From IMG/VR virus record IMGVR_UViG_3300021437_000025, positions 1 to 55,205 of that record: a stretch of 55,205 nt of DNA. One strand, given 5' to 3'. This DNA comes from a virus (lineage: Duplodnaviria > Caudoviricetes). The notes under the pieces were generated by a model that had not been told where the DNA came from, made no database searches, and worked only from the letters and a program-made list of their open reading frames with translations. Shown here in pieces: positions 49,289 through 55,205 of this stretch. The translations under genes and the position numbers were made by a program. The stretch's first letter is position 1. Each line of letters begins with the position of its first letter.

Positions 49289-50374
49289 ATGGCGATTGAC
49301 GTTGACTACAAGCGAGGCGCGGCAGACGTTGCCCGCTTATTCAATCTAGCCGAGGACGATTACCGGGCAAAAACGCTACTACCAGTCAGTGCCGAGGCCG
49401 TAGCTGCCGCCGAGACTCTGTTCGCAACCTCCGTGCAGTCCTACCGAGAGACCTTGCTTGGATGCGGTCTTGCACGCCTACAGAATCGGCGCATTAACAT
49501 CCGTTCGCCCTACGCGAACCAAGGTGCTGACTCTTTCAATGGGCGCAGTTTAGATGAGGTCGTAATTAATCGTTTCCTACAAGAGAAGGAAATCCCATCT
49601 GGCAAGGGGCCGTATCTCGCAGTATTCCGTCGCAGCGTGCGGTTCGTACCTGAGACAGCACAGGGCCTGCGGGATAAAGCTGGCTACACAGCGATGCTAT
49701 CTTACCTCAGCGAATTGGAAGCATGTACGGATGATGCTGGCGTGGAGCTTCTCATTCGCTTGCTGCTGTTCAAATTCGTTGAACTGCGCGACAAGGCACA
49801 GGTCGCAGTAGCGAAAATCGGACGCCTGAGCCTCGCGCAATACTCCGTGCTGATCGAGCAGCTTTTACAAACGCAGAGTGGTGGCTTACTGCCGGTCCTG
49901 CTGACAGTGGCTATGTTCCGCACGATCAAGGCGTGCTACAGCCTGCCATGGGAGATCGAATGGCAAGGGATCAACGTGGCTGACAAAGTCAGCGGTGCCG
50001 GGGGTGACATCACCATTCGGCGCGATGGCGCGATCTTTCTAGCCATCGAAGTGACGGAGCGTGTCGTTGACGGACCGCGAGTGGTCTCAACGTTCAACAC
50101 CAAGATCGTAAAGAACGCGATACCGGATTACTTATTTCTTACAACACAACCACCAGCGAGGGACGCGACCGAAGCGGCTGGACATTACTTTGCACAGGGC
50201 CATGAGATGAACTTTCTTGCCATGCGTGATTGGATTTGCAACGTGCTCGGCACCGTCGGCATGGCATGTCGGAAGCAATTCACCGACCAGTTTTTAGCCT
50301 TGCTTCAAGCCGAGGCCCCGGCGACTGTAAAGGTGCGCTGGAACGAGCTTATCAAGGGACTTTTTGGCTTGTAA
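49289..50374 (+). CDS. type II restriction endonuclease (SacI-like family)
   Basis: F.GRSLDE.VIN.FL and IN.AD...G..GDI......AIEV motifs; directly downstream of the methyltransferase. Confidence 0.75.
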   Translation: MAIDVDYKRGAADVARLFNLAEDDYRAKTLLPVSAEAVAAAETLFATSVQSYRETLLGCGLARLQNRRINIRSPYANQGADSFNGRSLDEVVINRFLQEKEIPSGKGPYLAVFRRSVRFVPETAQGLRDKAGYTAMLSYLSELEACTDDAGVELLIRLLLFKFVELRDKAQVAVAKIGRLSLAQYSVLIEQLLQTQSGGLLPVLLTVAMFRTIKACYSLPWEIEWQGINVADKVSGAGGDITIRRDGAIFLAIEVTERVVDGPRVVSTFNTKIVKNAIPDYLFLTTQPPARDATEAAGHYFAQGHEMNFLAMRDWICNVLGTVGMACRKQFTDQFLALLQAEAPATVKVRWNELIKGLFGL

Positions 50375-50396
50375 GGGAGTTAACTATATAATTCCC

Positions 50397-50801
50397 CAAA
50401 ATTTCACATCGTTCAGCGATGTGTTTTTGTTGCGGGTGAAGTAAATTCCCTTTATTTCTGGCATCCAGAATTACATCGCATAGGTCGGCAAGGATAGTAG
50501 CCTCATATCCAAATGCAGGCCGCCCACCACCGGGAGGAAAGAACCGAATAGGGCTTCTGATGCGCGCCGATAAGTCTTTTATTTCTAAGCCTTTATAAGC
50601 CAAAGAGTCCAATAAAGTCGCTACTCGCTGCTCGCCGACTTTTGAGCCACCACTAGAGGACATTCCAATGCCTGTTTGTAGGCCGCGCTGCGAAAGAACA
50701 CGGGTGCCATCCTCAAGAACATAGCAAGGGATTTCTATGTCTACAATTCGTAGTGGATGGTCGGCAGACCCATACTCAGCCTTGAGAATTTTATCGGTCA
50801 T
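50397..50801 (-). pseudogene. P63C-domain passenger gene truncated by the IS1595 terminal repeat
   Basis: IPCYVLEDG.RVLSQRG...ILADLCD...Q..IA..CEIL, after which the frame runs into the repeat (GNYIVNS). Confidence 0.75.
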
Positions 50802-51794: not shown

Positions 51795-52045
51795 TCGCAG
51801 GAACAGTTTATACAGACGAAGGATGGCATGCAGTGATCGCCAAGGTGGGGCGGCTGCACATAAAGGCCGTGGTTATTGATTATCCAATCCGCATAATCAA
51901 GCTGCCAGCGACTGCACAGATCAATTATTTTCACAATCCGTTATTAACAGTTCGCAAGGCCGCCAAGAAGATGCTCCTCTTTAGTCGGTCTCACGGCATT
52001 ACGAAAAGCGCGCGGCGCATCCTCAAGGAGGCGCTTATCCCATGA
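51788..52045 (+). CDS. first early gene, hypothetical, probably leaderless
   Basis: ATG 7 nt after the -10; basic 85-aa ORF. Confidence 0.65.
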   Translation: MIIAGTVYTDEGWHAVIAKVGRLHIKAVVIDYPIRIIKLPATAQINYFHNPLLTVRKAAKKMLLFSRSHGITKSARRILKEALIP

Positions 52046-52233
52046 AGATCACATTATCGCCATTGTGCCTGGTCTCGGCGGTAAAAGCCGCGATAGAGAA
52101 CTCCGGACACGAACTCCTGAATGACGGCCACGGCGACTTCATTCTTGTGCCCAAGGGCCATAAGCCCATCGCCGATTTTCACCAGCGGCCGACACGCTCA
52201 ACTACCATCACTAACACTCCGGAGGCCACATGA
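52042..52233 (+). CDS. hypothetical early protein
   Basis: GGAGG RBS; ATGA coupling. Confidence 0.6.
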   Translation: MKITLSPLCLVSAVKAAIENSGHELLNDGHGDFILVPKGHKPIADFHQRPTRSTTITNTPEAT

Positions 52234-52268
52234 CGCGGACGTGCCTCGGAAGTCGTAAGGAAGGTGGT

Positions 52269-52586
52269 ATGAAAAAAGAATCTCGCGCACAACTTATCAA
52301 GCGCCTGGAAAAAACAGGCCGCTGGATTGTGCGTATATCAACTGGCGTTGGTTACAATGATTTCAAATGGCAACCAATAGATGAGAAGAATTTCGGCGGC
52401 TCCCTCGATGTCCGTGGCTGTGACCTCAAGGGCGTGAAGCTGCCGGCGTCGGTGGGCGGCTCCCTCGATGTCCGTGGCTGTGACCTCAAGGGCGTGAAGC
52501 TGCCGGGGTCGGTGGGCGGCTCCCTCGATGTCCGTGGCTGCGACCTCAAGGGCGTGAAGCTGCCGGATTGTATGATCATCAGATGA
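52269..52586 (+). CDS. early protein with 20-aa LRR-like repeats
   Basis: GGSLDVRGCDLKGVKLP three times; AAGGTGG upstream of the ATG. Confidence 0.7.
   Translation: MKKESRAQLIKRLEKTGRWIVRISTGVGYNDFKWQPIDEKNFGGSLDVRGCDLKGVKLPASVGGSLDVRGCDLKGVKLPGSVGGSLDVRGCDLKGVKLPDCMIIR
52395..52566. repeat. 60-bp tandem repeat, about 2.9 copies
   Basis: Near-identical units start at 52395, 52455 and 52515. Confidence 0.95.
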
Positions 52587-52750
52587 ACAATTGTTACGCA
52601 GATCTCGTCGATGACGACGAGCGTGAGGAGCGGATTGCCGAATATTTGCATCGCAGGCGCTACGAAAAGGCCATGCGCCACGCCCCGGACTGCCGCGACC
52701 CTGCGCACCCAGGCTGCGAATACTGCGAACCAGAAAATTTCACCACGTAA
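52583..52750 (+). CDS. small Cys-rich early protein
   Basis: PDCRDP.HPGC..C motif. Confidence 0.65.
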   Translation: MNNCYADLVDDDEREERIAEYLHRRRYEKAMRHAPDCRDPAHPGCEYCEPENFTT

Positions 52751-52759
52751 GCAGGAGGC

Positions 52760-53734
52760 TTGATGAGTAGAGAGCTCGCCACCATCGGAAAATTTCTCGA
52801 AGACTATAAGTCGCAGATCACCGCCGCGCTGCCGTCGCATTTGAACGCCGACCGCATGGTCCGGCTGGCATTGACGGCGTTCAGCCAGAACAAGGCGTTG
52901 TTGAAGTGTGACCCCACCAGCGTATTTGGTGCTGTCGTCATTGCTTCACAACTTGGTCTTGAGATCGGTGTCGCCGGTCATGGCTTCTTGGTACCGTACA
53001 AAAACAGGGCGCAATTCGTCCCCGGCTGGCAGGGTCTTGTCGATCTCGTCTCGCGGTCGGGCCGCGGAACGGTTTGGACGGGCGGTGTATTCGAGGGCGA
53101 TGATTTCAGTTTTGCGCTAGGTGATTCACCATTCGTCAAGCATCTTCCCCGAGGCGAAGATGACCCGGAAAAACTGATACACACCTACGCCGTCGGCAGG
53201 CCCAAGGGCAGCGAATGGCCGATTATCGAGGTCTGGCCGATTGCGCGCGTCTGGCGCCACCGCGACAAGCACAACAAGGTCGGCGACGACCACTACAGCT
53301 TCAAGCACCCGGAGATGTACGCCCGCAAGGTGCCGTTGTTGCAGGTCATCAAGTACATGCCGAAGTCCATCGAATTGTCGAACGCCCTGGCGCTGGAAGA
53401 AGCTGCGGAAACCGGACATAACCCAACGATCATGGGCGATTTCGTCGTCGTCGAGAAGGAAGATAACGGCGATGGCGAAGGCAGCGGCGCCTGCATCGAA
53501 GGACCGAAGTCGAAATCGGGAGCCGCGCCAGCGGCGGCGGAGGCCGACAGACCGCCGGCGCAAGACCGCCTGTTGACCGACGGCGAACGCAATCACCTGC
53601 GCGGCAAGATGGAGGCTGCCGCGCTGACCGAAGCCGACCTCAAGGGCAAATTCGGCGTCGGTCTGGATGGCATAACAAAATCGCAGTTTGAGGATGTCCG
53701 TAGGTGGGCAGCCAACCCGGCGAAGACCGACTGA
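52760..53734 (+). CDS. recT: RecT-family single-strand annealing recombinase
   Basis: I..ALP.HL..DRM.R.AL, ASQLGLE, FLVPY, AQF.PGWQGLVDL..RSG and MY.RK...Q..KYMP.S.E motifs. Confidence 0.92.
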   Translation: MMSRELATIGKFLEDYKSQITAALPSHLNADRMVRLALTAFSQNKALLKCDPTSVFGAVVIASQLGLEIGVAGHGFLVPYKNRAQFVPGWQGLVDLVSRSGRGTVWTGGVFEGDDFSFALGDSPFVKHLPRGEDDPEKLIHTYAVGRPKGSEWPIIEVWPIARVWRHRDKHNKVGDDHYSFKHPEMYARKVPLLQVIKYMPKSIELSNALALEEAAETGHNPTIMGDFVVVEKEDNGDGEGSGACIEGPKSKSGAAPAAAEADRPPAQDRLLTDGERNHLRGKMEAAALTEADLKGKFGVGLDGITKSQFEDVRRWAANPAKTD

Positions 53735-54348
53735 TGGAACAACTGGCCTACATCGACATCAAACGCAGCTTCATGGCTGGCGCCGCCATCGGCTTGCAAC
53801 TGGCGGCCTACGAGGCGGCGGCGCGGTATGAACACGAGCCCCCAGGAGACCGACTGACATTTGATGAAGCCACCCATATCTATTATTGGGACGGTCAGCG
53901 CGTGCCCAACGTCACCAGCATAATCGGCGATCTCATCGATTACAGCATGGTTCCGGCGTATACGCTGGAAATCGCGCGACAGAAGGGTGTCGCCGTCCAT
54001 AAAATGATTGAGCTCGAAGCTAGGGGAGACCTCGACGAAGACAGTCTGCCGACGTGGATGCGGCCGGTTCTCGCCGAATGGCGTCGTTTCATCATTGAAA
54101 CAGGTTTTGTCGTCATCGCTTCTGAGCAGCGCGTCTACCACCCCAAGCTGGGTTACGCCGGCACTTATGATCTCAAGGGCAAATTTACGATCTTGAAGCT
54201 ACAGCATGGGAGACCGCCGGCGAGATTCGCCTTGAAGCTGCGCGAGAATGAGCCCTATCGCCTCGAACCCTATGACGACCCCAACGATTTCAACGTCTTC
54301 ACCGCCTGTCTAATCAGGCACAAATGGCAGGAGGTCAACCAATTATGA
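53704..54348 (+). CDS. PD-(D/E)XK exonuclease (RecT partner) with rearranged motif order
   Basis: All motifs present (LTFDE..H.Y, G..VH, SE..VY, YAGT.D, IDIK, QLAAY, R.AL.L), but IDIK/QLAAY come before LTFDE; start at GTG 53704 or ATG 53734. Confidence 0.8.
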   Translation: MGSQPGEDRLMEQLAYIDIKRSFMAGAAIGLQLAAYEAAARYEHEPPGDRLTFDEATHIYYWDGQRVPNVTSIIGDLIDYSMVPAYTLEIARQKGVAVHKMIELEARGDLDEDSLPTWMRPVLAEWRRFIIETGFVVIASEQRVYHPKLGYAGTYDLKGKFTILKLQHGRPPARFALKLRENEPYRLEPYDDPNDFNVFTACLIRHKWQEVNQL

Positions 54349-55205
54349 GCGCCGTATTACAGGAAAATCCACAAGAACTACTGCCGACGGAACTCTCAAT
54401 CACGCTGCGGCCGGCGGAAGTCTTGCCATTTCTCGGCCAGTCATCGAGCCTCACCGAGTCCGAGTCCATGGTCATCGACAGTCACGAGATGGCGCAGATC
54501 GCCGCCGACGAGCGCACCGCGCTGGCCAAACAAATCGAGACGTTGAAGAAGAAGAAGGCGGAGTTCATCGAACCGGCGGAGAGGATCGTCGAGCGGGCGA
54601 AGGCGCTGTTCGACAAACCCATCGCTGATCGCGAGGCCGCGCGCACCATCCTCGGCAGGAAGATCACAGACTACCGGGAACATGAACGCCTGCGTATCGA
54701 GGAAGAGAACGCCATGGCGAAGGCCGAGGCCGAGCGCCGACGGCAGAAAGCGGAGGCCGAAGCCGCCGCCGAGCGTGCCCGCGCCGAGCAGATCGCCGCC
54801 GAGAAGCGCCGCGAGGCCGAGGCCTCGGAGGCGGAGCGTAAACGCGCCGAGGCCGATGGCGACAAGCGCAAGGCGCAGGCCGCCGCCGCCGATGTCGCCA
54901 GGCGTCATCAGGAAGCAGAGGCCGCGTTACAAACCGGCGAGGCCAAAGCCTTGCAGAAAACCCAGACCGCCGCAGTGATGACAGCGGCGCCGGTGGTCGC
55001 CGTGCCGCCGGTCATCGCCGGCTCCACGCAGCGCGACAACTGGACAAATGCACTAAAACCAGACGTAACCGCCGATCAAGCCAAGCAGCAGATCGTCAGC
55101 GCCATAGCAGGAGGCCGTACCGACTTGCTCGGCGTCGTCAAGATCGACGAAGCCGCCATCTGCAAACTCGCAAAAGCGTTGAAATCAGCAATGAGTGTCC
55201 ACGGT
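54345..55205 (+). CDS. coiled-coil protein of the recombination module (continues across the origin to TAA 179-181)
   Basis: ATGA-coupled to the exonuclease gene; long E/A/R/K heptad region; frame is maintained through the terminal repeat. Confidence 0.8.
   Translation, partial: MSAVLQENPQELLPTELSITLRPAEVLPFLGQSSSLTESESMVIDSHEMAQIAADERTALAKQIETLKKKKAEFIEPAERIVERAKALFDKPIADREAARTILGRKITDYREHERLRIEEENAMAKAEAERRRQKAEAEAAAERARAEQIAAEKRREAEASEAERKRAEADGDKRKAQAAAADVARRHQEAEAALQTGEAKALQKTQTAAVMTAAPVVAVPPVIAGSTQRDNWTNALKPDVTADQAKQQIVSAIAGGRTDLLGVVKIDEAAICKLAKALKSAMSVHG
55075..55205. repeat. Terminal direct repeat, right copy
   Basis: Matches 6..136 with one mismatch. Confidence 0.95.

Follow-up and report, generated by a model that had tools for sequence, protein, structure and literature searches.

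The virus contig IMGVR_UViG_3300021437_000025 (Caudoviricetes), whose whole length of 55,205 nucleotides (nt) we call the window, encodes near its right end a small exonuclease next to a RecT-family annealing protein. In this exonuclease, the catalytic block that carries the DxK and QxxxY motifs (block A) is located at the N-terminus, and the protein reads A-B-C in place of the canonical B-A-C. Judging from its motifs and its genetic neighborhood, we regard the protein as a small RecB-type PD-(D/E)XK nuclease that forms a phage recombination pair with RecT, in which it is the exonuclease. Our reading, to which we assign a probability of about 0.6, is that a block of 36 codons was relocated to the beginning of the gene with retention of the fold and the usual active site, and that this happened independently of two other groups of permuted phage exonucleases (designated below as the P0118 and P0376 types). 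That the DxK/QxxxY block has truly been rearranged at this locus is close to certain.

Block order of the exonuclease

Relatives of the exonuclease were collected by a word-seeded search over 5.8 billion proteins, which yielded 119 hits, and the block order was read from an alignment with 17 homologues and from the motif positions in all 119. The canonical order, THxY...H...SE...GTxD...DxK...QLAAY...RxALxL, is present in 117 of the 119 proteins, with the DxK/QxxxY block located internally between the GTxD strand and the RxALxL strand; some of these 117 rows were caught by one of the two motif patterns only. Among the 119, an N-terminal block without an internal copy was found solely in the window protein and in P0118. 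The nearest relatives of the window protein in this search are 54% identical over 78% of the query.

The open reading frame (ORF; 53704..54348 on the plus strand, as are the other parts of the RecT-exonuclease locus given below) encodes 214 amino acids (aa) from a GTG codon at 53704 or 204 aa from an ATG codon at 53734. It is open throughout, ends with a stop codon at 54346-54348, and holds blocks A (DxK-QxxxY), B (THxY...H...SE...GTxD) and C (RxALxL...) in this order. According to the codon table, a segment of 41 codons (MEQLAY...EHEPPGDRL; 53734..53856) has been inserted between two copies of a direct repeat, and homologues begin at ...LTFDE. Block A proper comprises 36 codons of this segment (EQLAYIDIKRSF...QLAAY...YEHEPP; 53737..53844) and is predicted to form a strand with D8-x-K10 and a helix with Q22xxxY26 (204-aa numbering from 53734). 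Block B (LTFDEATHIY...SE(131)...YAGTYD(146)LKGKF; 53854..54186) aligns collinearly with canonical relatives over their N-terminal two thirds. A linker of 12 codons, TILKLQHGRPPA (54187..54222), which we call the scar, is found where relatives carry block A and forms an alignment gap opposite the canonical block. Block C (RFALKLRENEPYRLEPYDDPNDFNVFTACLIRHKWQEVNQL; 54223..54345), delimited by alignment, consists of two strands and a C-terminal helix (E164-168, E176-179 and H185-201).

The window protein has the complete set of motif residues, namely D8-I-K10, Q22...Y26, H48/Y50, H89, E131, D146 and R164. D146, the aspartate of the GTxD motif, opens the second core strand, and its column is invariant across 123 sequences. 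A first-pass annotation of this DNA had described an A-B-C order in one open frame with every motif kept, attributed to an internal block move and not to a circular permutation. Both statements are borne out by the internal position of the block in 117 of the 119 proteins, by the full residue set and by the fact that A-B-C is no cyclic rotation of B-A-C.

Profile searches reflect the altered order. The 'exonuclease' profile phrog_298 matches the window protein with an E value of 4.2e-17 at aa 45-161 only (profile positions 43-176 of 293), and it covers profile positions 49-259 and 49-251 in the canonical proteins P0002 and P0007, respectively. The canonical relative P0024 reaches the Pfam family PF12705 (PDDEXK_1) with 24.5 bits at a cutoff of 22. 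A profile built from the permuted family gave 8,376 hits; canonical proteins were matched by it in three separate stretches (137 of the best 150 matches), and permuted proteins in a single stretch starting at profile position 1-4 (11 of the best 150), which is the signature that non-collinear sequences would be expected to give. As for the hallmarks of a RecB-type PD-(D/E)XK nuclease, the window protein shows the GTxD aspartate, the (D/E)xK and QxxxY motifs and the likeness in fold; it lacks the canonical sequence order and stays below the curated profile threshold.

Repeats and scar in the DNA

The inserted segment is bracketed by two copies of the 11-bp sequence AGACCGACTGA. Copy 1 (53724..53734) contains the last RecT codons, the RecT stop codon and the old exonuclease leader ...EDRL, and copy 2 (53847..53857) encodes ...GDRL-T at the A/B junction, directly before TFDEATH. 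Canonical relatives begin with MLTFDE..., some of them with leaders of 10-20 residues. Because copy 2 is located where canonical relatives begin, the 41-codon insert lies in the old leader. The window contains exactly two copies of AGACCGACTGA, 123 nt apart and in the same codon phase, with 0.01 expected, and two or more matches occurred in none of 100 shuffles. The in-frame repeat pair that the first-pass annotation had pointed out is thus significant.

The same annotation had noted the recurrence of an 8-mer near the donor site. GGAGACCG is indeed present at 53845 and 54209, in different codon phases; it has four copies on the plus strand of the window and one on the other, and exact 8-mers occur at chance level in the 801-nt stretch, where four 8-mer families were found. 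Its position alone is suggestive. One-step cut-and-paste of identical DNA was considered and rejected, as exact copying would shift the frame by one G at either side. In addition, the 11-nt string ATGGGAGACCG (54206..54216) equals the ATG (53734-6) joined to GGAGACCG (53845-52), which is the string that the N-terminal segment would give on loss of the 108 nt at its center (36 codons, 53737-53844). This string has one copy in the window (0.03 expected), and as a post-hoc composite read one phase off, it is a suggestive hint that the same 36 codons may have been lost from the old site.

The scar region (54169-54216) is overlaid by short repeats of sequence within 600 nt (families D1, D2, D4, D6, D9 and D10 of 11), and the linker itself (54187-54222) is covered by D1, D4, D6, D9 and D10. 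For example, GGGAGACC from this region recurs at 54024, TACAGCATGG recurs at 53941, and CTTGAAGCT is found again at 54231, 39 nt away and in frame (ILKL versus ALKL). By a rough count, the number of repeats exceeds expectation, not decisively. They may represent a template-switching patchwork or chance, and repair by repeated template switching would fit them. A 17-nt stretch in the RecT tail (53636..53652) matches 54169-54185 at 16 of 17 positions (family D2), and both stretches encode DLKGKF, of which the aspartate is D146 in the exonuclease. The chance of this match is about 1 in 1000 by a rough estimate, and no model explains it.

Other permuted lineages

The A-B-C order, which the first-pass annotation had implied to be unique, turned out to be the usual one in a large phage family and also in another clade. 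At 90% clustering, P0118 has 272 or more relatives, and 119 of the 120 listed relatives (53-87% identical and 97-100% covered, apart from two short fragments) have the A-B-C order. The sole exception among the 120, P0217 (155 aa), begins after the block. In the other 119, the N-terminus follows the pattern ..IDIKTGKAEPWAALQ(L/T)AA(Y/Q)SLL, i.e. ..IDIKTGKAEPWAALQxAAY, and then V.FE.EGH.YT, and the internal site (...YAGTPDL.GCFPKP..RRFALEL) lacks the block. Residues D6, K8, G10, Q19, H38, Y40, H77, E119, D134 and R147 are invariant in 59 aligned members. The P0118 family is a phage family because 8 of the 46 IMG/VR loci found by its profile carry the permuted form. P0118-type members have no Pfam match.

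The P0376 clade has 12 relatives (65-79% identity, 91-100% coverage) with the A-B-C order, and the next relatives (48-50% identity, about 78% coverage) are canonical; the order was checked on four sequences on each side. The first-pass annotation had suggested a search for homologues with the same order, and the P0118 and P0376 types are its outcome. The permuted order was also seen in P0297 and P0337. Their block B appears unlike that of the P0118 type, and they may be additional origins of the order.

Two P0118-type loci show a common gene arrangement. At positions 3115-5250 of L014 and 3063-5236 of L019, the permuted exonuclease is preceded by an ORF of 294-312 aa and followed by a 225-aa 'exonuclease' of phrog_10477. 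The upstream ORF has neither a Pfam match nor BLAST similarity to the window RecT at either locus; in PHROG searches, the L014 protein had no match and the L019 protein matched phrog_10048 (function not assigned). It may be an unrecognised annealing protein.

Predicted structure

Structure prediction by AlphaFold2 was based on an alignment of 123 sequences, consisting of 59 P0118-family members, 63 canonical proteins and the window protein. The model of the window protein has a mean predicted local distance difference test score (pLDDT) of 93.2 and a predicted template modeling score of 0.87. Its elements, assigned by DSSP, are a strand at 4-10, a helix at 16-30, a small N-terminal sheet, helices at 75-96 and 107-123, strands at 125-136, 141-151, 164-168 and 176-179, and a helix at 185-201. 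The pLDDT values in block A are 85/85/96. The model of P0118 (pLDDT 93.8) also has the strand and helix at its N-terminus, with the same order of elements as in the window model.

Residues ~53-204 of the model superimpose on human MGME1 (5zyu/5zyv) with a Foldseek E value of 4.7e-4 and, in VIA-align, a Z score of 8.9 and a root-mean-square deviation of 3.0-3.6 for 134-141 aligned residues. The next matches, at Z scores of 4-6, are AdnA, Dna2, RecE, Cas4, AddAB, LHK-Exo and lambda exonuclease. In a search of 48,161 representative chains, every one of the top 16 is a RecB-family nuclease, and the likeness in fold covers residues ~36-204 only. Among viral predicted structures, PD-(D/E)XK exonucleases were matched with TM scores of up to 0.66. 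A sequence search against solved structures gave nothing significant.

It is very probable that the protein has retained the fold of a RecB-type nuclease. Strand 4-10 would be placed in the sheet between the aspartate strand and the next strand, with an active-site geometry to match. The first-pass annotation had guessed that the fold may survive. The confident models, and the natural families that have the same order and invariant catalytic residues, speak in favor of this guess; the assembly of D146, D8, K10 and Q22/Y26 into a single site is the part that we infer. We consider it more likely than not that the enzyme is active. By analogy, we expect a Mg-dependent 5'-3' exonuclease that would make the 3' single strand for annealing by RecT. 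In the lambda Red and RecET pairs, the exonuclease makes a 3' single strand on which the annealing protein acts.

Independent origins of the permuted order

In each of the three permuted lineages, the N-terminal block resembles the internal block of canonical proteins of its own lineage. Block A of the window protein gave ungapped alignments with residues 116-147 inside canonical P0002 (75% identity, E value of 8e-15) and with residues 117-157 inside canonical P0007 (59% identity). It has no match to P0118 (E value of 15) and only 11 identities over 21 positions, with a gap, to P0190, and it exceeds the P0118 type in length by one residue. For the P0118 block, the match is to residues 118-135 within canonical P0243 (67%, E value of 1e-7). 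The block of P0376 has its counterpart in residues 119-157 within canonical P0402 (54% over 39 aa, ungapped, E value of 8e-12) and is only 35% identical to that of P0002. This consistency argues for three independent relocations.

The remainder of the protein points in the same direction. A 4-residue deletion in block B is common to the P0118 family and its canonical sisters P0243, P0244, P0293 and P0353, and a long form of block B ('DYSMVPxxxLExARQKG') is common to the window protein, P0002 and P0007. In trees built without the block columns, the window protein is nested in canonical clades with support of 95-97 in the Shimodaira-Hasegawa-like approximate likelihood ratio test (SH-aLRT), the P0118 family is a separate clade, and the starred branches force two changes of state. 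The window protein is 55-63% identical to the nearest canonical proteins and 31-42% identical to members of the P0118 family. It shares the A-B-C order with that family and differs from it in tree placement, block type and indels.

IMG/VR was searched for close relatives with the ancestral DNA, and none was found: the RecT relatives there are 53-64% identical, with no close relative of the exonuclease. L002 was the only one of ten RecT loci that had an exonuclease homologue (36%, upstream of RecT).

Judging from these comparisons, it is highly likely that the rearrangement in the window arose independently of the other permuted lineages. The exact 11-bp flanking repeat suggests that the event is young, and it looks recent and the youngest instance among the permuted lineages found. 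We give an even chance to the broader view that the family underwent the same non-cyclic rewiring at least three times, with the window as a young instance that keeps DNA footprints in the form of the 11-bp flanking duplication and the patchwork scar.

Alternative explanations

Several observations weigh against a recent, independent relocation that left a functional fold. The window form is a singleton, with no second sequence of its own lineage. No Pfam family matches the protein at E values up to 1. Because the internal GGAGACCG is shifted by one codon phase, the frame is not restored by a clean cut-and-paste in one step. In the model, the A-B connector (pLDDT 78) and the scar (pLDDT 79 at residues 151-160) have lower confidence, and the input alignment, which held the collinear P0118 family, may have guided the placement of the block. 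No clear structural match of sequence-order aligners covers block A. Of the alignments listed, just three begin ahead of model residue 28 (R354 5yet, a KEOPS subunit and CYP130; Z scores of 2.6-3.7), where the alignment range denotes the first and last aligned residues only. Block A would remain unmatched because sequence-order aligners must skip a block that fills its usual place from the other end of the chain, which is not proof. An approximately unbiased (AU) test on blocks B and C (44 rows, 159 columns) did not reject a tree in which all permuted proteins form one clade (p = 0.204, log-likelihood difference of 17.1). Finally, the assembly evidence consists of contigs, not raw reads, and two of the contigs may come from the source samples.

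The rearrangement could be real and the gene dead or decaying, the block having come to the front accidentally and its internal copy having been lost, with a frame that is open only because the event is young and the nuclease dispensable. The lone status of the window form among 119 relatives, its distance from the nearest kin (54% over 78% of the query), the missing Pfam match, and the 12-residue scar, overlaid by short repeats and modeled with lower confidence, would all suit such a gene. However, both changes are in frame, all catalytic residues are kept, and the fold is predicted with confidence. The block boundaries also resemble those of two other lineages that keep the A-B-C order across wide divergence with invariant catalytic residues, and no allele other than the rearranged form was seen; it reaches a depth of 53 in one run and occurs in contigs from three. 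We therefore consider decay unlikely, although it is the strongest of the alternatives.

A single ancient origin, with the window protein as a divergent member of the P0118 permuted lineage, would agree with the AU test and with the start of both proteins a few residues before the DxK strand. It is at odds with the higher identity of the window protein to canonical proteins than to the P0118 family, its nesting among canonical clades (SH-aLRT 95-97), the P0002 type and extra residue of its block A, and the 4-residue indel in block B that splits the two groups. Moreover, an exact 11-bp repeat would not outlast a divergence to ~35% protein identity. This origin is very improbable.

As for the assembly, the JGI/IMG (55,205 nt) and Logan/ENA (55,138 nt) versions encode an identical protein, apart from M/V at the GTG. 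The Logan contigs of runs X1 (35,550 nt, depth 53) and X2 (2,908 nt, depth 5), which may be the source samples mentioned above, cover 53000-55205 in one piece with one difference. A 251-nt contig from X3, a third freshwater sample, covers 53707-53957 with zero differences and reaches from the end of RecT across the two repeat copies and block A into block B. Run X4 contained little of the stretch and nothing of the exonuclease gene, and is uninformative. No alternative joints or loose ends were reported in the contigs at 53724-53857 and 54187-54222. The first-pass annotation had called for a check against misassembly, and the contigs from three sequencing runs confirm the arrangement. A chimeric contig that misplaced 108-123 nt, conceivable in that all the evidence comes from short-read assemblies, is rejected as having a negligible chance in view of the identical protein from three assembly pipelines, the contigs from three runs, an 11-bp repeat too short to mislead assemblers and a frame kept at two sites, which such an artefact is not expected to produce.

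Proposed path of the rearrangement

A relocation in three steps could account for the present gene. First, a copy of the block would have been inserted in the leader (...PGEDRL|TFDE) by template switching at short homologies; the hexamer AGACCG is common to the leader and the sequence after the block. The resulting A-B-A-C intermediate would have kept its internal block intact. Subsequently, the internal copy would have been deleted in frame, leaving the 12-residue linker. Such a copy-then-delete path would keep every intermediate functional. Alternatively, a partial duplication in tandem could have been trimmed by two deletions, which would likewise place a copy of the leader on either side of block A. 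The order of the DNA events, copying first and then deletion, is inferred. No A-B-A-C form was found among the 119 hits. P0293 was considered as such an intermediate because MAFFT placed its N-terminal extension under block A, and it was discarded because the hhalign alignment starts only at residue 29. A role of RecT in the rearrangement is speculation, and the homologies are only 6-11 nt long.

In the rearranged protein, the strand-helix unit would be supplied from the N-terminus instead of by a hairpin after the aspartate strand, and the linker would lead directly into the strand that follows. The usual D / D-x-K / Q-Y / E site would then be rebuilt from segments in a new order.

Gene layout of the locus

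The RecT-family single-strand annealing protein (324 aa; 52760..53734) was identified by its matches to Pfam PF03837 (E value of 9.1e-28) and to the RecT-like phrog_148 (E value of 4.4e-50). Its TGA stop codon (53732-53734) overlaps the ATG at 53734 by one base. The exonuclease gene adjoins the RecT gene in the same orientation and overlaps its end, which is the layout of a two-gene phage recombinase. A Shine-Dalgarno-like pentamer, GAGGA, read from the sequence at 53690..53694, is located 9 nt upstream of the GTG at 53704. The GTG behind this pentamer is probably the ancestral exonuclease start, and the gene callers of three sources chose it as the start codon. Permuted-family members begin 2-5 residues ahead of the DxK strand, which corresponds to the ATG at 53734. 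A promoter and terminator scan of 52000-55205 gave matches at chance level only.

The window is a linear IMG/VR contig with an estimated completeness of 79%. Contig X1 runs ~32.8 kb past its right end, and the phage genome is therefore longer than the window. The ORF 3' of the exonuclease (54324-55205) runs off the window end at more than 290 aa; it contains many A, E and R residues, its middle part is a long, charged, repeat-like tract, and neither Pfam nor PHROG gave a match. On the other side of the locus, an ORF of 118 aa (52230-52586) contains three tandem copies of the 17-residue unit GGSLDVRGCDLKGVKLP and has no Pfam match, and contigs X1 and X2 both start at ~52511, within this repeat. 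Further upstream, the minus strand carries an IS1595/ISXO2-like transposase within the phage contig (50798-51610; PF12762, E value of 1e-38, plus a zinc ribbon), and directly downstream of it on the same strand is a 149-aa ORF (50352-50801) with no family match.

Significance and comparison with known systems

The exonuclease is a natural rewiring of a known enzyme fold, which is recurrent and not unique. To our knowledge, natural proteins are seldom found with a core reordered in any way but circular permutation, and hardly ever with scars that can still be seen in the DNA. Since the same rewiring has in all likelihood arisen on separate occasions in two or more other groups, it seems to be tolerated by the enzyme fold. 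One family offers canonical forms, a recent singleton with a flanking repeat, and two older lineages that keep the rewired form with invariant catalytic residues. If the broader view given above is true, this would be a natural, datable example of a new protein topology arising via viable intermediates, and the recurrence would hint at an advantage of the new order itself. It raises the questions whether a catalytic strand and helix can work from the other end of the chain, which intermediates are viable and whether the rewired enzyme behaves differently with its annealing partner. For annotation, the consequence is that hundreds of phage exonucleases are labeled hypothetical because the permuted forms get no Pfam match and only partial PHROG matches. 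A limited search of the open-access literature found no description of this reordering, which is no proof that it is unpublished.

The PD-(D/E)XK fold has several known variants. Hef (1j22) has a circular permutation of its first helix, T7 endonuclease I has a domain swap, and single catalytic residues have migrated in Cfr10I, EcoO109I and Pa4535 (PMC3424549). As far as these cases are described in the parts of the survey consulted, they show that the fold tolerates both reordering of the core and relocation of catalytic residues (PMC3424549). The window protein differs from them in that the third core strand and the following (second) helix have moved as a unit and in a non-cyclic manner, and those same parts of the survey do not list such a relocation (PMC3424549).

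The P0118- and P0376-type proteins resemble the window protein most closely in architecture, with the A-B-C order, similar block boundaries, identical catalytic residues and a short linker where the block would otherwise be. They differ in their sequences (31-42% identity to the window protein), in their types of block A and indel states, and in forming their own clades with their own canonical sisters.

The best structural matches, MGME1, Dna2, AddAB-AdnAB and Cas4 (PF12705), have the same motif set as the window protein. In contrast to these nucleases, the window protein has no Pfam match, and its block A is not clearly matched in sequence order, as the alignments to them begin at model residue 28 or later. 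The closest functional counterparts would be lambda Exo/Red-beta, RecE/RecT and LHK-Exo, in which a gene for a small RecB-type PD-(D/E)XK nuclease likewise lies beside a gene for a RecT-family annealing protein. The window model aligns to RecE (3h4r, Z score of 5.7), LHK-Exo (3syy, Z score of 4.7) and lambda exonuclease (3slp/1avq, Z score of 4.3), with no detectable sequence match to any solved chain. In all three, the strand and helix with DxK and QxxxY follow the aspartate strand, whereas in the window protein they precede the domain.

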